A stretch of 44,170 nucleotides of DNA from an uncultured Bacillota bacterium (GCA_937868875.1 CALMNP010000417.1:1-44170); one strand, 5' to 3'; counted from the first letter of the stretch, positions 3-30,049 are shown. Numbers and translations: made by a program. Notes: generated by a model not told the origin, from the sequence alone.

Positions 3-92
3 ACCGTGCCCGGCCCGGGGGAACTGCAGGTGCGCCTGGACTTCGGCGGCGTGGAGCGCGTGGTGCTGGCGCGGACCCTAGTCGTCTCTTAG
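3..92 (+). CDS. 3' end of an unidentified host gene (partial, 29 codons + TAG)
   Basis: Frame 3 reads TVPGPGELQVRLDFGGVERVVLARTLVVS*. Third positions are almost all G/C up to ~nt 77, as in the high-GC backbone. The last 15 nt (78..92) overlap the convergent small island ORF. Too short to name. Confidence 0.4.
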   Translation, partial: TVPGPGELQVRLDFGGVERVVLARTLVVS

Positions 93-578
93 CGACGGGA
101 AATGGTATACGAGAAAGTCTACGAACTCACTTGGGGCCCACGGATCGGGTCCCACGGGGTAGTGGATATGGTCCTCGATTGGACGAGGATGGTGAACATT
201 CAGGTGAGGCTGTCTGGCAACAGGAGAAGCTTCAGTGGCTAGCGCATTGAAGTCGTATCTGAATACCCATTCGAACTTTCCAGAATAGCACCCGCCATCG
301 GGCTTGCTGAACTGATATTTCCATTTTACCAGGATGTAGTCGTCGTCATCTTCGTACCTTAGCCAAGCCTCCTTAATAAGGAGGTAGTACTGCTTATCCC
401 GGAGATGGAACCCCCTTTCTGGGTCGGTGGTCGATGAGGGGGTAATCTCTCGAATGAAGTAACCCGTATATGGCTGAGGGCGGGTGACCTGCAAGATACC
501 ACCTTTGATAATCGGCTCCAACGACCTAGCCCACAGATGCCGACGCTCTTCCACTCTATCCTTCTTCATGGCCTCCAC
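78..578 (-). CDS. small hypothetical protein (163-166 aa) with an acidic DDDD patch and a C-terminal His cluster; second gene of the low-GC island
   Basis: Open frame 78..578. The start is GTG at 578 or, more likely, ATG at 569..567, which forms an ATGA overlap with the TGA (568..566) of the 930-aa gene and implies translational coupling. GC is ~50%, like its partner. Motifs read from the translation: YEDDDDYILVKWKY, WVFRYDFN, HLNVHHPRPIEDHIHYP. No family is recognised with certainty. There is only a faint, memory-based resemblance to DUF6516/TumE-type small proteins. Confidence 0.75.
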   Translation of the reverse strand: MEAMKKDRVEERRHLWARSLEPIIKGGILQVTRPQPYTGYFIREITPSSTTDPERGFHLRDKQYYLLIKEAWLRYEDDDDYILVKWKYQFSKPDGGCYSGKFEWVFRYDFNALATEASPVARQPHLNVHHPRPIEDHIHYPVGPDPWAPSEFVDFLVYHFPSLRDD

Positions 579-3358
579 CTCGTCAGAAACGGGCTGAGTT
601 CAACGGCCCTTCGAAGTGGCGCTGGGATAGCGAATACGTCCAGCACAGCGTTATCCAGATTCCTCAGGGCGTCGACATGCCTTGAGACACCGAGGAGCCG
701 GTCCCTCTCTGTCACGGCCTCAGTCAGCCCGACTATCGCATTTTGTACTGCATTTACGCTACCTGCAACGCACGACAAGTCCGCCCCTTCAGGAGGCAAT
801 ATGGGAAGAGGCTTGATGAACTTACCATAGTATGCATAGTAGCCTCCCTTTCGCTCAACGCTGGTCACAGCGACAAGCCATGAAAACAGGGCACTGTTAA
901 GTAGTCCGAGCAATAGGGATAAGTCTATGGATTCATCGGATTTCTGTGTGAGAAACGTGCCTCCAATTGGGACCATCGTCCCTTCTGGATCAAGGGCGAA
1001 ACGAGCACGCGGTGCATAGTCCGGACTTAACACCTTGGGAGAACCCGACTGTCGGGGTACGTGTGCCCACGCGTACCAGTCACGAACCTTCGTGCCCCTC
1101 CGCATGAGCAAATCCTTGTTTTCAAGAAGATAGGTATAGGCCTTCGGGTAGGATTTTAGTTCATCTTCAGGCATGAGCCCCCGGGAGTTGTACGGAAAGA
1201 GGCCAGCCAAGTTCCTAGCAGCAAAGAACGCTGAACGAATGAACCGACCAGGCATTACTGGTTGGAGGAGTTGAGACTCCAGAAGAAGAGGTGATTTGTC
1301 ACCTGTAAGCGGTGCACAAAGCCAATGGCGATCTGACGCTTTATCCATCAGGCGCATCAGGAAAACGTCGTCCTTAGCGGTTTTGGCTCCCTCTTTAACA
1401 TTGAACTCAGACTCCAAAGGGTGCCCCACGGCAGTCATGTACTGCCATAATGCGTGCTCTTCGGAATCAAGAAGTAGCCACGGACCTCCCTTTGTCTTCT
1501 GTTCAACGATGCCAAAGCGAACGTCACCTACAGGCGAATCGATCATCGAGGACTTCTCAAGTGTGAAAGCTCTACCTTCATCCGTGTCCGGCAAGTCGTA
1601 GAAACGTACCATCGCGGGGCGAGCCCTACTTGCCTGGCCGGGTCTCATGACCACAACTGATACGTAATTACTAGTGTCAGGAAAGACGTCCACGTCTGTG
1701 AAGTCAACAATCCGAACAATATCATCTGCGATTAGTTTACGGATCGGACTTCCGTGGTGGCCCTTTCCAAGGTTAGACGGCATTACCATCGAAATGGCTC
1801 CGTCTGCCTTTAGCAACCGGGACGACAGTTCAAGAAAGAGGTAGGCTAAGTCGTATCGACCGCGAGCAGACTCATACCGCCTTCTAAGCTCGTCTTGGTA
1901 GTCGCGGTCTAGCGCCCGGCGACCATCCTTGCTCACAAATGGCGGGTTGCCGACAATCACGTCGAATGTCCCACTAAGATCAGATGTATTATCCATTAAC
2001 GAGTCACGGCAAACGATATTTCTCTTCAGGTCGGGCAATGAACTGGACTGGTTGAGAGCGGCGAGAGACAGGTTCAACCGCGCTGCCTCCACCGCACGTG
2101 GATCTTTATCCCAGCCATACAGACTTTTTTGGAGAACCGCGATCCTGTCCGTGAGTGGTATATCGTTGGTGCTGATTCCTTTTGTCTCTGCCATGGTTGA
2201 AATGATCGTTTCAAAGGCGGTAACTAGGAAGGACCCAGAACCGCAAGCAGGGTCAAGGACCTTAGGGAGTACCCCTTTGCTAACAATGGATTTGATTGTG
2301 TCAGCAGTCTGCTTCACCACGTAGTGCACTAGGTACCGAGGCGTGTAGTAGATCCCCTCTGTTTTCCGTACCGACCTCAGGTGGGTTCCCGCGAGTCCGA
2401 AATGCTGCTGCCCTGCTCTTCTGGACTCACGGACAATCACCGATTCTGGCGAATACGACAAGTACTCTTCATAAAAGGCCCCCAGCAAGTCTACATCTAG
2501 CAGTCCGAAGTCTAGTTGAAGGTGGTCAAGTACCGTTGGGGTGTAGAGTCCCGATATAAGCTGCATCGGTGAGAAATCGTTAATCGAATCTAGGTCGGCC
2601 GAATCGTCAGGGTGCCCCTGGAAAAGCGTACTATCATATCGCTCCTTTAGGCGGCTAAGGTATGTAAGAAGCGAAGATTGACCGGCATTTGCGGCCCCGA
2701 GTAAGCTTTTGGGCGGCTCCCACCCGCGGTCTTCGGCATAACGAGCGAATATCAGGCGAGCAAAGAGCAAGTACAGAGCCGAATCCAGGTCGGTAGTTCT
2801 CGATTTGGGGGAATCCGCCAAGACTGCACGTCGCCAAGCCGTAAAATGGCGGAGGAGGTGCTGCACTAATGTCGGACCCCAAGACTCCAAAGGTTTCTGC
2901 GCCAGGGCATAGCGCTCCAAATCACCCGAGTATAGGGCTGTCGGGTACAAGAAATCCAAATCCGCCAAGGAGCCAATAATCTCGTCCCAGGTGCTAGAGA
3001 ATACTGGAACAGGCTCTTTGTGCTCAAGAGGCCAGAGTACGTTGTACAGGCCAATACCGTCGTTCGGGTCTACTGAGGCAAGCCACCTGACGTCCTTGTT
3101 GTAAGCGAGGGTAAGAGCAGGTAGGAGAGGCTGGCCCCCGCAGAGAACGGCCATGTGGGGAATGTTTTGTGCTCCAAAGAAATCCACTCGGACTCCATGA
3201 CTCTCAGGGGAGACAACTGGGCCGTCCCAACCTAGGCCGCTCATCACTCGGGCCAAAACGAGGGCTCCATCTTCACAACTGGCCCTACGGAGGCGCCACA
3301 GGTCCTCAGCAATAGCGCTGGGCAGTGGCACGCGAAACACCTCCTTTGCTTTCTTCAT
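566..3358 (-). CDS. single-chain type IIG-like restriction-modification protein: N-terminal putative nuclease/unknown region, helical spacer, gamma-class N6-adenine DNA methyltransferase, long C-terminal target-recognition region
   Basis: 930-aa ORF. AdoMet motif I is DPACGSGSFL (nt 2254..2225) and catalytic motif IV is NPPF (nt 1948..1937). GIYYTPRYLV precedes motif I. The helical segment LYLLFARLIFARYAEDRGW is typical of Eco57I/MmeI/PglX-type enzymes. About 450 aa follow NPPF, which fits a specificity domain. ATG 3358 has a poor SD. The alternative GTG 3331..3329 lies 8 nt after AAGGAGG (3346..3340). Confidence 0.85.
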   Translation of the reverse strand: MKKAKEVFRVPLPSAIAEDLWRLRRASCEDGALVLARVMSGLGWDGPVVSPESHGVRVDFFGAQNIPHMAVLCGGQPLLPALTLAYNKDVRWLASVDPNDGIGLYNVLWPLEHKEPVPVFSSTWDEIIGSLADLDFLYPTALYSGDLERYALAQKPLESWGPTLVQHLLRHFTAWRRAVLADSPKSRTTDLDSALYLLFARLIFARYAEDRGWEPPKSLLGAANAGQSSLLTYLSRLKERYDSTLFQGHPDDSADLDSINDFSPMQLISGLYTPTVLDHLQLDFGLLDVDLLGAFYEEYLSYSPESVIVRESRRAGQQHFGLAGTHLRSVRKTEGIYYTPRYLVHYVVKQTADTIKSIVSKGVLPKVLDPACGSGSFLVTAFETIISTMAETKGISTNDIPLTDRIAVLQKSLYGWDKDPRAVEAARLNLSLAALNQSSSLPDLKRNIVCRDSLMDNTSDLSGTFDVIVGNPPFVSKDGRRALDRDYQDELRRRYESARGRYDLAYLFLELSSRLLKADGAISMVMPSNLGKGHHGSPIRKLIADDIVRIVDFTDVDVFPDTSNYVSVVVMRPGQASRARPAMVRFYDLPDTDEGRAFTLEKSSMIDSPVGDVRFGIVEQKTKGGPWLLLDSEEHALWQYMTAVGHPLESEFNVKEGAKTAKDDVFLMRLMDKASDRHWLCAPLTGDKSPLLLESQLLQPVMPGRFIRSAFFAARNLAGLFPYNSRGLMPEDELKSYPKAYTYLLENKDLLMRRGTKVRDWYAWAHVPRQSGSPKVLSPDYAPRARFALDPEGTMVPIGGTFLTQKSDESIDLSLLLGLLNSALFSWLVAVTSVERKGGYYAYYGKFIKPLPILPPEGADLSCVAGSVNAVQNAIVGLTEAVTERDRLLGVSRHVDALRNLDNAVLDVFAIPAPLRRAVELSPFLTRWRP

Positions 3359-3436
3359 ACCCTAAATTCGACTTCGCTGGCAAAATCCCTCGTATATCCC
3401 ACAAATTTCTATTATCCTTTTTTGGAGGGACTCCCC

Positions 3437-4501
3437 GTGCTGACCCGCCTTTACCGGCTGCAGGGAACTGAACAGGACTGGGCGGGGGCCCTGGCGGACG
3501 CGGCTCGGGTGCTGCGGTCCGGCGGGCTGGTCGCCTTTCCCACAGAGACGGTCTACGGCCTGGGCGCCAACGCCCTGGACCCGCAGGCCGTTCGCCGCAT
3601 CTTCACGGCCAAGGGCAGGCCGCAGGACAACCCGCTCATCGTCCACGTCGCCGGCGCGGAGCAGGTCCCTGGGCTGGTGCGCCACATCCCCCCCGTCGCC
3701 GAGCGGCTGATGGCGGCGTTCTGGCCGGGGCCCCTGACCCTGGTGCTGCCTCGCCTGGCGGTGGTGCCGCTGGAGGTGACCGCCGGCCTGGAGACGGTGG
3801 CCGTTCGCTTCCCCTCCCACCCCGTGGCGCAGGCCCTGCTGCGCACAGCCGGTGTGCCTGTGGCCGCGCCCAGCGCCAATCGCTCCGGCCGGCCGAGTCC
3901 AACGCGGGCCGAACACGTCATGGAAGATATGGAGGGCCGGGTAGAGGTCGTGCTGGACGGCGGCCCCTGCGGCGTCGGCCTGGAGTCCACCGTGGTGGAC
4001 TGCACTTCGTCCCGCCTGCGCCTGCTGCGCCCGGGCGGCGTGACGCCGCAGGACCTGGAACGGGTGGCAGGGCCGGTGGAGGTGGACCCCGGGGTGCTGA
4101 AGGTGCGGCGCGCCGAAGACCTGGGCCCAGTGGCCTCGCCCGGCATGAAGTACCGGCACTACGCCCCCCGGGGGGAGGCGACGCTGTTCGAGGGCGACAA
4201 GGCAGCCCTGCCGGCGGCCTTGCGAGAAGCGGCCGAAGAGGCGGCGAAACGCGGCCTGACCGTCGCCGTGGTGGCCAGCGACGAGACGCTGGCGGCCTAC
4301 CGGGGACCCGGGTACCCCATCTCTCTCGGCAGCCGGCGGGACCTCCCGGCCATGGCCTCGAGCCTGTTCGACGCCCTGCACCGCTGCGACCAGGTCGGGG
4401 CCGGTCGCGTCCTGCTGGAAGGCGTGGAGCCGGAAGGCGTGGGACTGGCCATCGCCAACCGCCTGCGCCGCGCCGCCGGAGGCCGCGTGGTGCGGCTGTA
4501 G
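3437..4501 (+). CDS. tsaC: L-threonylcarbamoyladenylate synthase (Sua5/YwlC type, t6A biosynthesis)
   Basis: Signatures AFPTETVYGLGANA and SANRSGRPSPT plus a C-terminal Sua5 domain. GGAGGG (3424..3429) lies 7 nt before GTG 3437; the ORF opens at TTG 3422. Confidence 0.9.
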   Translation: MLTRLYRLQGTEQDWAGALADAARVLRSGGLVAFPTETVYGLGANALDPQAVRRIFTAKGRPQDNPLIVHVAGAEQVPGLVRHIPPVAERLMAAFWPGPLTLVLPRLAVVPLEVTAGLETVAVRFPSHPVAQALLRTAGVPVAAPSANRSGRPSPTRAEHVMEDMEGRVEVVLDGGPCGVGLESTVVDCTSSRLRLLRPGGVTPQDLERVAGPVEVDPGVLKVRRAEDLGPVASPGMKYRHYAPRGEATLFEGDKAALPAALREAAEEAAKRGLTVAVVASDETLAAYRGPGYPISLGSRRDLPAMASSLFDALHRCDQVGAGRVLLEGVEPEGVGLAIANRLRRAAGGRVVRL

Positions 4502-4521
4502 CCAGGTCGCGTCCGGCCGAA

Positions 4522-4551
4522 TTGCTGCCCGGATGTTGGCAGTGGTATCAT
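4522..4551 (+). promoter_or_regulatory. candidate sigma-A promoter with extended -10
   Basis: TTGCTG (4522..4527), 18-nt spacer, TATCAT (4546..4551), with TG at 4543..4544. The predicted TSS at ~4558 lies ahead of GAGG and GTG 4576. Confidence 0.4.
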
Positions 4552-4575
4552 GGGGAAAAGCGAGGTGTCGGTTGC

Positions 4576-5046
4576 GTGGGACGTCAGTTCACCCTCGCCG
4601 AAGCCAACGCCCTGTTGCCCTCGGTTGAACCCCTGCTTCGGCACGTGGTGGCCCTGAAGCGGGAGTACGACGGTAAGAAGAAAGAACTTCAGCATTCCAG
4701 GGCTGCGGCCATGTGGAAGGGCCAGTCCGTGGACCGGGACAGCTTCATGGCGGAAGAGACGGAACTGGAGTTTTATGCCGTGGCCTTTCAGGCCGACGCC
4801 CTGCGGCTTCAGGAGATGGGCGTGGAGTTGAAGGATCTGGAGACCGGTCTGGTGGACTTCCCCACGCGGGTGCAGGGCGAGGCCGCCTACCTGTGCTGGC
4901 GGCTGGGCGAGCCGGAAGTGCTCTTCTGGCACGGGCTGGAGGCCGGCTTTGCAGGGCGGAGGCCCGTGGCGGAACTGCCGGGGGAGGCCCTTCCGGAGCG
5001 GGAGCGCGAGAACCGGCAGCTTCCGGACGAGGGGGATTCCGCGTGA
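4576..5046 (+). CDS. DUF2203-like conserved hypothetical protein
   Basis: The N-terminus FTLAEANALLPSVEPLLRHV resembles DUF2203-family proteins (from memory). GTG 4576 is preceded by GAGG. The ORF-track start at 4522 coincides with the putative -35 box. The stop overlaps the next gene (GTGA 5043..5046). Confidence 0.6.
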   Translation: MGRQFTLAEANALLPSVEPLLRHVVALKREYDGKKKELQHSRAAAMWKGQSVDRDSFMAEETELEFYAVAFQADALRLQEMGVELKDLETGLVDFPTRVQGEAAYLCWRLGEPEVLFWHGLEAGFAGRRPVAELPGEALPERERENRQLPDEGDSA

Positions 5047-7889: not shown

Positions 7890-8348
7890 ATGGAGGAACG
7901 CGAAGGCCGCCCCGGGTGGCACGACTATTTCCTGGAGATGGCGAAGCTGGCGGCGACGCGGTCCACCTGCCCCCGGCGCCATGTGGGAGCGGTCCTGGTC
8001 CGCGATCACCGCGTCATTGCTACAGGCTATAACGGCTCCGTCAGGGGAGACGACCACTGCGACGACGTGGGCTGTATGATGGTGGACGGTCATTGCCGGC
8101 GCACCCTGCACGCTGAACTCAACGCCTTGCTGCAATGTGCCATCACCGGTGTCTCCAGCGTGGACACCACCATGTACTGCACGGACTTCCCCTGCGTCGA
8201 CTGCGCCAAATCCATGGCGCAAGCGAGAGTGCAACAGGTGATTTACCTGGCGGAGTACCCGGATGACAATTCGGCGCAGGTCTTGCGCAAGGCGGGGGTC
8301 AAATTGCTGCGGGCGCACCCGGCTGGGTCCGGTTACGTCCTGGAGTAG
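7890..8348 (+). CDS. deoxycytidylate (dCMP) deaminase, ComEB family
   Basis: Zinc-deaminase motifs HAELNAL and PCVDCAK, plus WHDYFLEMAKLAATRSTC. ATG 7890 follows the upp stop immediately. The upstream part of the ORF-track frame overlaps upp. Confidence 0.88.
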   Translation: MEEREGRPGWHDYFLEMAKLAATRSTCPRRHVGAVLVRDHRVIATGYNGSVRGDDHCDDVGCMMVDGHCRRTLHAELNALLQCAITGVSSVDTTMYCTDFPCVDCAKSMAQARVQQVIYLAEYPDDNSAQVLRKAGVKLLRAHPAGSGYVLE

Positions 8349-8411
8349 CGACAGTTGCGACAGGCCGGTCCTCCTGCGGCACATGGAGCCAATACGCTTA
8401 CATTCCGTCGG

Positions 8412-8440
8412 TTGACAGTCCCTGGCAGGTGGCCTACAAT
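8412..8440 (+). promoter_or_regulatory. near-consensus sigma-A promoter
   Basis: TTGACA (8412..8417), exactly 17 nt, TACAAT (8435..8440). It lies ~115 nt upstream of GTG 8555. Confidence 0.6.
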
Positions 8441-8554
8441 GGATGCGGCTGTGTGGCCGAATGGCGTTTTTTCGCGATGCGACAACCTCTCATGGGTCTT
8501 GCTGTTGTTTGTTGCAACCCGCGAGACGCCGGCCGCACCAAATGAGGTGAACCC

Positions 8555-9598
8555 GTGCTGACCTACATCAAGGCCTTCAGTTATGCTCTGCTGGTGGCCT
8601 ACGCTCTCACCCCGCTGGTTCGCATACTGGCGATCAGAGTGGGAGCCCTGGACAAGCCCGTCGAGCGCAGCGTCCATACGGAGCCGAAGCCTTACCTGGG
8701 CGGCATCGCCATTTACCTGGCCTTCTCCATTGCAGCCATCGCCTTCATCGGCTGGCAGATGCCGCTGGTGCGGGGCGTGGTTCTGGGCGGCGGCCTGATT
8801 GTCATCTTCGGCGCCATTGACGACTTCCTCCACCTGTCGGCGAAGGTGAAGCTGCTGGGCCAGATCCTGGCGGCCCTGCTGCTGGTCGTCACCTACGGCG
8901 TGCGCGTGGACTTCCTGACCAACCCCTTCGGCGGCATGTTCTATCTGCATGATTGGGCCATTCCGCTGTCGGTTTTCTGGGTCGTGGCGGTGGTGAACGT
9001 GGTCAACCTGGCCGACGGCCTGGACGGTCTGGCCGCGGGCATCTCCAGCATCGCCTCGCTCACGCTGCTCTTCGTCGGCATGTTCCAGGAGAGCCCCCTG
9101 CCGATCCTGCTCATGACAGCGGCTCTGGCGGGGGCGGCCCTGGGCTTCCTGCCCCACAACTTCAACCCGGCCAAGATCTTCATGGGCGACGCCGGGGCCA
9201 TGTTCCTGGGCTACGCTCTGGCGGCCGTCTCCATTCAGGGCACCCTGAAGAGCGCCACCGGTCTGGCCCTGGGCATTCCCGTGCTGGCTCTGGGCTTGCC
9301 CATCTTTGACACGGCCTTTGCCATCGTCAGGCGGACGGGCAACGGCCGGAAGTTCTACGAGGCGGACCGCGGGCACCTGCACCACCGCCTCATGCAGTTG
9401 GGCCTGTCCCACCGCGACACGGTGCTGGTGATGTACGCCGTCTCCGCCTGGCTGGGCGTCTCCGCCGTGGCCATCAGCGAGATGAGCTTCTTCCCGGCCC
9501 TGGTGGTCATGCTGGCGGTATCGCTGGCCATGGTGGTGGCGGCCCGACGAGTTGGCGTTCTGGACTTCGGCGCCAAGCGCCACCACGTGTCGCACTAG
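8555..9598 (+). CDS. tagO: glycosyltransferase family 4: undecaprenyl-phosphate GlcNAc-1-phosphate transferase (TagO/WecA-like)
   Basis: Polytopic membrane protein with NVVNLADGLDGLAAG and PAKIFMGDAGAMFLGY (MraY/WecA family). Confidence 0.88.
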   Translation: MLTYIKAFSYALLVAYALTPLVRILAIRVGALDKPVERSVHTEPKPYLGGIAIYLAFSIAAIAFIGWQMPLVRGVVLGGGLIVIFGAIDDFLHLSAKVKLLGQILAALLLVVTYGVRVDFLTNPFGGMFYLHDWAIPLSVFWVVAVVNVVNLADGLDGLAAGISSIASLTLLFVGMFQESPLPILLMTAALAGAALGFLPHNFNPAKIFMGDAGAMFLGYALAAVSIQGTLKSATGLALGIPVLALGLPIFDTAFAIVRRTGNGRKFYEADRGHLHHRLMQLGLSHRDTVLVMYAVSAWLGVSAVAISEMSFFPALVVMLAVSLAMVVAARRVGVLDFGAKRHHVSH

Positions 9599-9734: not shown

Positions 9735-10919
9735 TTGAGTTCAGGAACAGATTCCCGCCGCACCGTTATGACCATCTTCGGCACCCGGCCGGAAGCCGTG
9801 AAGATGGCGCCCGTGGTCAAGGCTCTTGCGGCCCGGCCGGAGCGCTTCGTCGTGAAGGTGGCCGTGACCGCCCAGCACCGGGAGATGCTGGACCAGACTC
9901 TTCGCCACTTTGACCTCAGGCCCGACCATGACCTCAACATCATGCAGCCGAGGCAGACCCTGGCGGGCATCGCCACGCGGGCCCTGGAAGGGCTGGACCG
10001 GGTGCTCGAGGAGAGCCGCCCGGACCTGGTGCTGGTCCATGGCGATACGGCCACCACCTTCATTGGCTCCCTGGCCGCCTTCTACAGGCAAATCCCCGTC
10101 GGGCACGTGGAGGCCGGCCTGCGGACAGACAACAAGTATGACCCGTTCCCGGAAGAGATGAACCGCCGGCTGACCGGCCAGGTCGCCGACCTGCACTTCG
10201 CCCCCACCCCCTGGGCCCAGGCCAACCTTCTGGCGGAGCGGGTGGACAGGAAGTACCTCTTCGTCACAGGGAATACTGCCATTGATGCCCTGTTCCTGAC
10301 CCGCCGCAGCAACCACCGGTTCGCCGAGCCAGGGCTGCGCTCGCTGGACTTCGCATCGCGCCGTGTCATCGTGGTGGATACCCTGCACCGGCGCGAGAAT
10401 CTGGAGCGGATGGGCGGCATCTACGGGGCCATCCGCCGCCTCGCCGAGGCCAGCCCCGAGGCCCATCTGGTGGTGCTGATGCACAAGAACCCCGCCGTCC
10501 GGGATGCTGCCGCCCCGGTCCTGGCGGGCCTCACCGGCATCACCCTGCTGGACCCCCTGGACTACCCCGACTTCATCAATCTCATCCACCGCGCTTACTT
10601 CGTCATCTCAGACTCGGGCGGCGTGCAGGAGGAGGCCCCGTCCCTGGGCTCACCCGTGCTTCTGCTGCGCGAGACCACGGAGCGGCCGGAGGCCATCGAG
10701 GCCGGGACCGTCCGCATGGTGGGCACCGACCCGGATGCCATCTTCGCCGCGGCGCGGCAGCTTTTGACGGACGACACCGCCTACCGCGCCATGCGCGAGG
10801 CCGGCAATCCCTACGGCGACGGCCTGGCCTCGGAGCGCATCGCCGACGCGCTCGAATACTATTTTGGCTGGCGGGCCGAACCGCCCCGGCCATTCTCCCC
10901 GGCTTCCGCCAGAGCCTGA
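9735..10919 (+). CDS. mnaA: UDP-N-acetylglucosamine 2-epimerase (non-hydrolysing)
   Basis: TIFGTRPEAVKMAPV, HVEAGLRT, DSGGVQEEAPSLG. TTG 9735 lies 8 nt after GGAGG (9722..9726). ATG 9768 is an alternative start. Confidence 0.9.
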   Translation: MSSGTDSRRTVMTIFGTRPEAVKMAPVVKALAARPERFVVKVAVTAQHREMLDQTLRHFDLRPDHDLNIMQPRQTLAGIATRALEGLDRVLEESRPDLVLVHGDTATTFIGSLAAFYRQIPVGHVEAGLRTDNKYDPFPEEMNRRLTGQVADLHFAPTPWAQANLLAERVDRKYLFVTGNTAIDALFLTRRSNHRFAEPGLRSLDFASRRVIVVDTLHRRENLERMGGIYGAIRRLAEASPEAHLVVLMHKNPAVRDAAAPVLAGLTGITLLDPLDYPDFINLIHRAYFVISDSGGVQEEAPSLGSPVLLLRETTERPEAIEAGTVRMVGTDPDAIFAAARQLLTDDTAYRAMREAGNPYGDGLASERIADALEYYFGWRAEPPRPFSPASARA

Positions 10920-11172
10920 CGGGGTGGGTGTAAGCCCACGCCCGAGTTAAGCAGATGGAGAAAACCCGAGCCAATACGCGATTTTGGGCCTCCAACGGCC
11001 CATTTCCTGAAACTGGGACATAATCCGAAAAAAATGTTCCCGGCACAGAAGGATAAAGGACCATCCAAATCGAATATGAACGACTCGTGCAGCAGGATAG
11101 CGCCTTGTGTGAAAACTGTACTTTGCAAAAAGTCCCACAGGTACAGCCGGCTCCCCATGGGGAGGTCTCGCC

Positions 11173-11397
11173 GTGAAGTTCTTTGACCGCGAGAGCCCGG
11201 TCGGCTCCCTGATGGGAGAAGCCTTGGCCTTCGGAGCCACCCTGGCGCTCTCCAGCATAGGTGCTTTCTACCTGGGGAAGTATCTGGACGGGCGCTGGGG
11301 GACGGACCCCTGGCTGTCCGTCATCCTGCCCATTCTGGCCATCGGCGGCTCCTTCTACCGATTCATCCGCCGGATTCTGGCCAACTCGGGGGAGTGA
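11173..11397 (+). CDS. atpZ: AtpZ/ATPase_gene1-type small membrane protein
   Basis: 74-aa two-TM protein with FYLGKYLDGRWGTDPWLSVILPILAIGGSFY, directly ahead of atpI. Confidence 0.75.
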   Translation: MKFFDRESPVGSLMGEALAFGATLALSSIGAFYLGKYLDGRWGTDPWLSVILPILAIGGSFYRFIRRILANSGE

Positions 11398-29887: not shown

Positions 29888-29912
29888 GGCTCTAGCCTCA
29901 ACAACTGCATGG

Positions 29913-30049
29913 CTCATCTAGAGAGGACGAGGGACTGGCCCGATGACGCCTCGACAACCGGCCGCACCTTCCGCGGTACGGTGCCAATTCCAGCAGATGA
30001 GACGAGGACGCGCGTCCTGGACCTCTTCAACGGAAGGGGTTTTTTCTTT
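29913..30049 (+). promoter_or_regulatory. SAM-I (S-box) riboswitch with terminator
   Basis: P1 is CTCATCT (29913..29919) / AGATGAG (29995..30001). The conserved core reads AGAGAGGACGAGGGACTGGCCCGATGACGCC...CAACC...GGTGCCAATTCCAGCAGATGAG. A hairpin CCTCTTC-AACG-GAAGGGG (30022..30039) plus TTTTTTCTTT (30040..30049) follows. Confidence 0.85.

Follow-up and report, generated by a model that had tools for sequence, protein, structure and literature searches.

The DNA analysed here is a contig of 44,170 nucleotides from an uncultured Bacillota bacterium (GCA_937868875.1, CALMNP010000417.1:1-44170), which we refer to as the window and which close to its left end contains a low-GC island on the minus strand (78..3421). 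An initial annotation, generated from the sequence alone, had described this island as a foreign segment encoding a single-chain restriction-modification (R-M) enzyme of type IIG character together with a small His-rich protein. We find exactly two long open reading frames (ORFs) in the island, both on the minus strand and preceded by an AT-rich leader of 63 nt: a large gene (566..3358) for a protein of 930 aa, predicted to be a nuclease-dead type IIG-like fusion of a methyltransferase and a target-recognition domain (TRD), and a small partner gene (78..569) for a His-rich α+β protein of 163 aa. As had been proposed and as can be read from the sequence, the two genes are coupled by an ATGA stop/start overlap (566..569). 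To judge from these features, the pair appears to be a defence or addiction module of two parts that has not been described before, derived from an R-M system and similar to a toxin-antitoxin pair.

The foreign character of the island, suggested in the initial annotation from hand counts, is manifested in its composition. Its GC content of 52.8% compares to 66.8% in the remaining 40.7 kb, and in a sliding-window analysis 188 windows of the same size taken from elsewhere show a mean of 66.7% (standard deviation 1.9%, minimum 63.1%), which places the island at z = –7.4. It is the sole stretch below 60% GC in the 44 kb; short dips within the backbone of 65–72% GC, at ~10800-11250 (0.55–0.59) and ~4500-4800 (0.62), are far smaller. 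The GC content of third codon positions equally sets the large (56%) and the small gene (60%) apart from the neighbouring tsaC (89%).

The island is inserted between two host genes. On its left, the high-GC gene left unnamed in the initial annotation is prmC, whose 3' end (3..92, plus strand) overlaps convergently with the 3' end of the small gene over its last 15 nt (78-92). On contig L002, where this flank is longer, a 91-aa fragment matches the C-terminus of a relative's PrmC (E 5e-9). On its right, the gene had correctly been assigned as tsaC (3422..4501, plus strand), a member of the Sua5/YrdC family with matches to the Pfam domains Sua5_yciO_yrdC (1e-62) and Sua5_C (7e-28). Since prfA, prmC and tsaC follow each other without gap in six related metagenomic loci (L111, L114, L130, L140, L176 and L178, with TsaC proteins of 50–58% identity), the 3.3 kb constitute an insertion into a conserved junction. 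The search for an empty site, which the initial annotation had recommended, has thus succeeded with respect to gene order but found no close relative, the nearest TsaC among metagenome contigs being 58% identical, and the empty site is for that reason seen at the level of synteny only. The 15-nt overlap further implies that the insertion has altered the tail of PrmC by replacing its last few codons, the protein ending in ...RVVLARTLVVS* here and in ...RVVLARRGREE in its relatives. We found neither convincing terminal direct or inverted repeats nor integrase or mobility genes at the island. The contrast in composition and the insertion into a conserved junction identify the island as foreign and horizontally acquired.

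The same two proteins are carried by four short contigs from other metagenomes (L002-L005; JGI 3300010328, 3300025143 and 3300022551; ENA ERZ27245621), in all of which the small protein exactly matches that of the window. These contigs all break 130–260 bp outside of the island and the window itself begins 77 nt from it; contigs that end close to either border of the island hint at a mixture of strains, some carrying the island and others lacking it. The promoter of the cassette presumably lies in the AT-rich intergenic stretch (3359..3421) that separates the large gene from the divergently oriented tsaC, although a consensus scan of this region detected no sigma-70-like site and a scan of the island for promoters and terminators gave no signal exceeding shuffled expectation.

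The large protein and its degenerate nuclease domain

For the large gene, GTG 3331 is a more likely start codon than ATG 3358. The latter is preceded by a weak ribosome-binding site, whereas the former sits 8 nt past a perfect AAGGAGG (3346-3340) and defines a protein of 921 aa; the closest homologue P0003, which is 43% identical and whose N-terminus aligns from this position, has exactly this length. The large protein therefore probably contains 921 rather than 930 residues.

Searches with the large protein support the part of the initial annotation that placed it in the type IIG family. Matches in Pfam include Eco57I (5e-23), N6_Mtase (7e-22), TaqI_C (4e-6) and MmeI_Mtase. In PADLOC, the best model is MTase_II (5e-56, aa 331–854), and the model REase_MTase_IIG (PDLC03604) matches with 4e-53 over aa 143–854 but without its first 178 profile positions. 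We identified 1081 homologues at E≤1e-10, most of which are 900–1000 aa long, share 25–30% identity over about 90% of their length and contain an N-terminal Pfam HSDR_N domain; a tblastn search of plasmids gave no match at E≤1e-20. Models of BREX (PglX), DISARM (DrmMI) and MADS (mad2) proteins were matched via the methyltransferase domain only, with 59 bits compared to cut-offs of 400–900, and none of the other signature genes of these systems (PglZ, BrxC, DrmA/B and MAD proteins) accompanies the pair in its island of two genes. Similarly, neither a controller protein with a helix-turn-helix, nor a separate methylase, an S subunit or a BREX partner is present in the island, in line with what had been noted before.

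The domain organization of the large protein can be followed along the minus strand. A degenerate PD-(D/E)xK domain resembling HSDR_N (3029..3319, aa ~14–110), delineated from alignments and an AlphaFold2 (AF2) model, precedes a linker (2369..3028, aa ~111–330) that is predicted by AF2 to be helical and that contains residues conserved in the family (W175, R176 and a block from R201 to D210). The ensuing γ-class N6-adenine methyltransferase domain (1559..2368, aa ~331–600) contains, as annotated initially, motif I with the sequence DPACGSGSF (2228-2254) and motif IV with the sequence NPPF (1937-1948), and a TaqI_C-type TRD is located further towards the C-terminus (800..1090, aa 757–853; PF12950, 27.6 bits compared to a cut-off of 26.5). 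The region encompassing the methyltransferase and the TRD (aa 329–859) aligns with the solved structures of CamA and M.BseCI with E-values of 1e-20 to 9e-25.

The N-terminal domain deviates from its homologues in the residues of the active site. Homologues show the PD-(D/E)xK signature 'GRVDYxF...LEAK', and D..ExK is retained in 99 of about 110 full-length proteins. In the alignments, the large protein has kept the aspartate (D59), while at the ExK motif the glutamate is replaced by Leu72 and the lysine by Gly74. In its closest homologue P0003 and in the protein of locus L001, the aspartate has been lost in addition to ExK. The family PF04313 gave no match to the large protein at E≤1. An AF2 model of its residues 1–210, obtained with 40 sequences, has a predicted local distance difference test score (pLDDT) of 87 and displays the αα-βββ-α-ββ core expected for such a domain. 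Foldseek searches with this model gave weak matches (E 0.05–1.1), in which restriction-endonuclease-like folds are interspersed with unrelated ones; the best include 9y1l (a putative restriction-endonuclease domain), 2ohc (the tRNA-splicing endonuclease of Thermoplasma), EcoT38I, EcoR124I HsdR, DrdV and BpuSI. The model thus suggests that the N-terminus appears to have kept a restriction-endonuclease-like fold. Taken by its sequence, the large protein is a type IIG derivative with a nuclease domain that would be preserved structurally but catalytically dead. Due to the loss of the catalytic ExK it is predicted not to function as a single-chain R-M enzyme, and in this respect the original assignment is not supported. 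Both methyltransferase motifs (I and IV) are preserved in the window protein, as they are in 15 of 15 large proteins that lack ExK, and the protein is therefore predicted to methylate DNA without cleaving it.

The small partner gene and its link to nuclease-motif loss

The small gene can be read from GTG (78..578, 166 aa) or from ATG (78..569, 163 aa), of which the latter is the better start because a Shine-Dalgarno-like element (AGGTGGAGG, 572-580, minus strand) is located just upstream of ATG 569, inside the end of the large gene. Consistent with the initial annotation, the encoded protein has no match in Pfam, PADLOC or NCBIfam at E≤1. Searches of PHROGs gave two matches at the level of chance (E 0.07 and 0.16), both to families without assigned function, and those of PDB sequences with phmmer and a profile nothing meaningful, a match to NikD at E 0.019 being attributable to chance. 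No match was found in plasmids and phages by tblastn, where the related partner from locus L018 returned chance matches only in plasmids, and a scan of genome contigs with the small protein did not detect relatives. The family is very rare: a word-indexed search of 5.8 billion proteins returned the small protein itself only, and when 1.84 billion cluster representatives were searched in full with HMMER, four true relatives were retrieved, which a profile search enlarged to 10 clusters. A fifth hit of the HMMER pass, the repeat protein P0125 (1941 aa, five matched stretches), was rejected as an artefact of composition and repeats (YQFNDG...SPDG).

In a MAFFT alignment of the partner superfamily, R9, E67, Y85, R104, H122, H136 and P138 are invariant, whereas D58 and D91 are lost in the partners from L018 and L020, and no acidic metal-binding cluster is conserved superfamily-wide. 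Residues such as Glu, Arg and two His are used by metal-independent RNases like RNase T1 and barnase. An AF2 model of the small protein based on 10 sequences (pLDDT 72, predicted template modelling score 0.72) contains helices at residues 5–17 and 146–156 and, according to DSSP, eight mainly antiparallel strand segments, namely seven long ones and a short one at 122–125. We read this arrangement as a seven-stranded antiparallel sheet with two helices. Foldseek did not identify a match to the model, the best E-values being 0.74 in the PDB and 0.08 in BFVD. Several candidate assignments, none of which was returned by the searches, were discarded since the spacing of motifs or the fold does not fit, including His-Me/HNH, PD-(D/E)xK, GIY-YIG, phospholipase D (PLD) and PabI half-pipe nucleases on one hand and cupin/2-oxoglutarate oxygenases, Vsr and PUA-like readers on the other. 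Families of helix-turn-helix or other regulators were not detected in the small partners.

The initial annotation had asked whether homologues of the small gene are repeatedly found right behind related methylase fusions in unrelated genomes. This is the case in at least five lineages with different flanking genes (L001, L006-8, L009, L010-14 and L015/16), where the partner is found 1–4 nt from, or overlapping with, the end of the large gene wherever upstream DNA existed to score its position, which identifies it as a real conserved partner instead of a hitchhiker. The upstream genes encode Eco57I/TaqI_C proteins of 921–964 aa, and the large proteins of all partner-linked lineages are devoid of ExK. 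As in the window, the island of L001 is low in GC (54% compared to 65%). The remaining homologues lacking ExK fall into three groups, typified by P0078/P0052, P0068/P0100 and P0006, each of which has an unannotated gene for 170–220 aa located –17 to +12 nt downstream. Within these same limits, a small gene follows the large one in 10 of the 10 motif-less lineages examined (the window, L001, L006, L009, L010, L017, L018, L020, L181 and the P0100 contig). In contrast, a partner homologue is found nowhere in the locus in any of 62 motif-intact cases, which represent the complete motif-intact ORFs among 80 loci from GTDB genomes encoding relatives of the family. The general statement that enzymes of this kind normally act alone consequently does not apply here, since it is the large proteins devoid of the nuclease site that are accompanied by a partner.

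The same division is reflected in phylogeny. In a neighbour-joining tree, 15 of 15 motif-less proteins group in one deep clade apart from 50 motif-intact ones. Sequence divergence of the partner parallels that of the large protein (43% compared to 43% identity, and about 30% compared to about 30%), and the association has been kept while both proteins diverged to 16–30% identity. When aligned to the window-type partner family with hhalign, the partners of L020 (E 8e-8) and L018 (E 2e-5) are recognized as relatives. That of L017 on its own gave nothing (probability 0.9%) and is linked only via shared invariant columns in the MAFFT alignment and via L181, whose previously unseen partner is detected at 2e-22 by a broad hidden Markov model of partners that includes L017. 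In this way, the partners of four of the five subclades of large proteins are related to each other. A faster divergence of the TRD compared to the rest of the large protein, which would hint at independence of the partner from specificity, left no signal.

Further genes were observed at related loci. In the L006-L008 lineage, a gene for a 351-aa PLDc_2 protein (PF13091, phospholipase D/nuclease family; L006:4400-5455, L007:4088-5143 and L008:1656-2711) follows the pair on the same strand at a distance of about 250 nt and may be a third component or an unrelated neighbour. Unannotated ORFs of 70 and 76 aa, which overlap with the start of the large gene in L006 (552-764) and L020 (1363-1593) and for which there is no equivalent in the window and L001, may be optional regulators. 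In L181 (GCA_031425735.1), a second Eco57I-family gene (8329-8754) is found about 2 kb downstream of the pair, adjoining a ribonucleotide reductase gene. Among motif-intact type IIG relatives, eight loci (L060, L063, L065, L067, L083, L085, L086 and L090) display a recurrent but different two-gene arrangement, in which an ORF of ~535–540 aa overlaps with the gene end by 14 nt; their hosts are several Bacteroidota, Gallionella, Arcobacteraceae and a gammaproteobacterium. The whole window contains a single match at Rfam gathering score, an S-adenosylmethionine (S-box) riboswitch (29911-30003, plus strand; RF00162, 63.5 bits, E 1.4e-12), and ARAGORN detected neither tRNA nor transfer-messenger RNA genes in the 44 kb.

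A possible relationship to TumE and the function of the pair

The sole family signal obtained for the partners concerns the toxin TumE. Members of this family (Pfam PF20126, formerly DUF6516) are described as having a seven-stranded antiparallel sheet with two helices packed against it and no homologue in the PDB (Durairaj et al., 2023, PMC10584680). They are usually encoded in bicistronic operons downstream of diverse unrelated partners and inhibit translation but not replication, for which an RNase activity has been proposed but is unproven (PMC10584680). In a permissive Pfam scan of all partner sequences, PF20126 was the only family matched repeatedly and in a collinear manner, with E-values of 0.008 for the partner of L018, 0.016 for P0129, 0.07 for P0131 and 0.07 for the consensus sequence of the family, and for the P0100 partner a precomputed match to TumE exists at E≤0.001. 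For direct comparison, we used seven annotated DUF6516 genes from haloarchaeal plasmids, which match the Pfam family with 2e-6 to 2e-15 and represent one of seven TumE classes. Alignment by MAFFT E-INS-i pairs the motifs YxLHYG/YRYQLS, RYDN/FRY(D/E), HExH/HLNxH and E[FY]PG/H[YF]P. We regard a relationship of the partner family to TumE as somewhat probable, a lead with several independent weak supports in place of an established membership. The suggestion of a toxin-like effector, already contained in the initial annotation, fits with this weak signal.

In the haloarchaeal plasmids themselves (L182-L188), the DUF6516/TumE gene is in seven out of seven cases located upstream of, and often overlapping with, a gene of 130–150 aa annotated as 'transcriptional regulator', helix-turn-helix or hypothetical protein, which reverses the order reported to predominate, with the toxin gene in second position. 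The DUF6516/TumE gene of Halococcus dombrowskii adjoins a gene for a class I SAM methyltransferase. Full-text searches for DUF6516 and TumE led to the discovery paper, its preprint, a Halococcus genome note and a single passing mention in a preprint on β-trefoils, in which we saw no link to type IIG-like methylases.

A dead nuclease, retained methylation and recognition and an obligatory partner that co-diverges are most simply reconciled if the effector had moved to the partner. We thus tentatively favour the view that the island constitutes a methylation-linked two-component module, whose effector function would have left the inactive fused nuclease and been taken up by a TumE-like toxin held by the large subunit. 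Here, the large protein would recognize DNA through its TaqI_C-type TRD and, with motifs I and IV intact, would still methylate adenine, while the fused PD-(D/E)xK domain might survive as a scaffold only. The effector role would have passed to the translationally coupled small protein, a putative distant relative of TumE that would most likely act as metal-independent nucleic-acid hydrolase on RNA or the translation apparatus. Both proteins, made at a ratio of about 1:1, may form a complex, in which the large subunit would silence the effector in an antitoxin-like manner while methylating host sites. Unmethylated foreign sites, an attack by anti-restriction factors or the end of large-subunit synthesis after loss of the cassette could then release or activate the effector and lead to growth arrest, with abortive infection or post-segregational killing as potential outcomes that would follow the logic of PrrC and EcoprrI described below. 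An effector of the toxin type is favoured because the only family signal leads to toxins that target translation and since the invariant residues resemble those of metal-independent RNases. A more specific version, in which an R-M sensor made up of TRD and methyltransferase would gate the TumE-fold toxin without any cleavage of DNA, so that unmethylated foreign DNA or a phage anti-restriction protein inhibiting the sensor would cause a translational shut-down and hence a class of hybrid immunity not described before, is conceivable but speculative.

Several observations weigh against this reading. The small protein of the window does not itself match TumE, and the scores of its relatives (13.6–16.6 bits) stay below the gathering threshold of 23.4 bits, compared to 28–57 bits for true TumE proteins. 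Comparison of partner-family alignments with the seven haloarchaeal DUF6516 proteins by hhalign gave probabilities below 1%, and hmmsearch between partners and these proteins was non-significant in both directions, for which reason we do not claim membership in the family. Alignment by L-INS-i selects a different register for the N-terminal half, and the likeness in fold matches a verbal description of TumE with a model of pLDDT 72 calculated from 10 sequences. Concerning the association, all motif-less proteins belong to one clade and the link may thus trace to one ancient event, so that the nuclease may have been lost and the partner acquired in a single step; the contrast of 10 against 62 does for that reason not amount to 72 independent observations. 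Finally, a partner that cuts DNA would explain the same data about equally well.

The latter possibility corresponds to a split restriction enzyme, in which the small protein would be a nonspecific DNA endonuclease subunit with a new nuclease fold that replaces the dead domain, binds to the large subunit (perhaps via the degenerate domain itself) and cuts unmethylated DNA near TRD sites. In function, the pair would then be an ordinary R-M system. We consider this explanation only slightly less likely than the tentatively favoured one. That ExK is missing strictly where a partner occurs can be read as a functional replacement, the methyltransferase motifs are kept as required for self-protection in R-M systems, and the order of a methylase followed by a translationally coupled endonuclease is common in R-M operons, whose type II endonucleases are often orphans in databases. 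The invariant cluster of His, Glu and Arg could equally form the active site of a nuclease, and DeepFRI predictions for TumE families include DNA binding and ester-bond hydrolase and nuclease activity. Conversely, the small protein does not resemble any of the nuclease folds and families considered (PD-(D/E)xK, HNH, GIY-YIG, PLD and half-pipe), its sole family signal leads to toxins that inhibit translation rather than replication, and the loss of D58 and D91 in L018 and L020 leaves no acidic cluster for metal binding across the superfamily.

An orphan epigenetic methyltransferase with a non-catalytic helper, such as a chaperone, a modulator of dimerization or specificity or a regulator, would have no role in defence or toxicity. 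The dead nuclease and the intact methyltransferase motifs would be in accordance with this scenario, as would the best PADLOC model being MTase_II instead of a type IIG model and the absence of any toxin or nuclease family above threshold; moreover, the closest solved relatives of the methyltransferase-TRD region, CamA and M.BseCI, are stand-alone enzymes and CamA is an orphan. Still, we deem it unlikely, as orphan methyltransferases usually are core genes or inherited vertically while the cassette is compositionally foreign and found in different genomic contexts, and because a passive helper would be expected neither to preserve an invariant set of His, Glu and Arg in proteins this divergent nor to coincide so precisely with an absent nuclease motif, the partners also being without detectable helix-turn-helix or other regulator families. 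An intact stand-alone type IIG enzyme next to an unrelated or dispensable small ORF, for which the overall homology, the domain order and the retained D59 could be quoted, is largely excluded and highly improbable, given that ExK is absent from the window protein and every partner-linked relative (with the aspartate also gone in L001), and that the small ORF is conserved, always adjacent, co-diverging and carried by 0 of the 62 motif-intact relatives.

Comparison with known systems

If the favoured reading of a TumE-like effector held by the large subunit were true, a single-chain restriction enzyme would have swapped its effector, with the nuclease turned into a scaffold and its task taken over by a separate protein of toxin fold, while recognition and methylation stay in place. 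It would provide a second biological setting for the poorly understood TumE fold and, in the more specific version of a sensor that gates the toxin, a first link between the TumE superfamily and the discrimination of self and non-self by DNA methylation. The pair would also be a compact two-gene addition to the catalogue of defence systems, one that PADLOC, Pfam and NCBIfam label only as 'N-6 DNA methylase' and hypothetical protein. Our results further illustrate that type IIG assignments based on domain content only over-predict restriction activity, and that inspection of D..ExK separates both groups cleanly. The scope of the claim is modest, since the clade is rare and known almost exclusively from metagenomes.

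With type IIG enzymes such as MmeI, BpuSI and DrdV, the large protein shares the order of HSDR_N, Eco57I/N6_Mtase and TaqI_C domains, its length, the methyltransferase motifs I and IV and the TRD. It differs in the lack of a catalytic ExK, in the obligatory small partner, which true type IIG enzymes lack, and in forming its own clade. The γ-class methyltransferase-TRD module is common to M.TaqI, M.BseCI and CamA, which in turn contain neither the N-terminal nuclease-like and helical region of ~330 aa nor a conserved TumE-like partner. Unlike in classical type II R-M systems, the small protein is without match to a recognized nuclease family or fold, and it is not represented in PADLOC-DB.

In analogy to TumE-TumA pairs, a small protein is encoded downstream of, and overlapping with, an unrelated partner gene. 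Both small proteins contain His-rich conserved motifs, and the fold predicted for the protein described here, with two helices, seven strands and no homologue in the PDB, would match the description given for TumE. In contrast to these pairs, the partner gene encodes a DNA methyltransferase of ~930 aa instead of a small DNA-binding antitoxin, and the small proteins of 160–220 aa exceed the length of ~100–125 aa found in the haloarchaeal TumE proteins examined.

The proposed logic, in which an R-M protein would restrain a toxin that targets translation, has a precedent in PrrC, an anticodon nuclease residing in an R-M locus, which the type Ic system EcoprrI keeps latent until unmodified DNA or an anti-restriction factor of a phage sets it free (PMC3632139). 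The two systems are not homologous, PrrC being an ABC-ATPase/HEPN protein. Whereas EcoprrI is a complete and active type I system of three subunits, the R-M partner described here is predicted to be nuclease-dead and the whole arrangement comprises two genes, which, if the more specific version with a gated TumE-fold toxin were correct, would make it a minimal version of the PrrC/EcoprrI principle.

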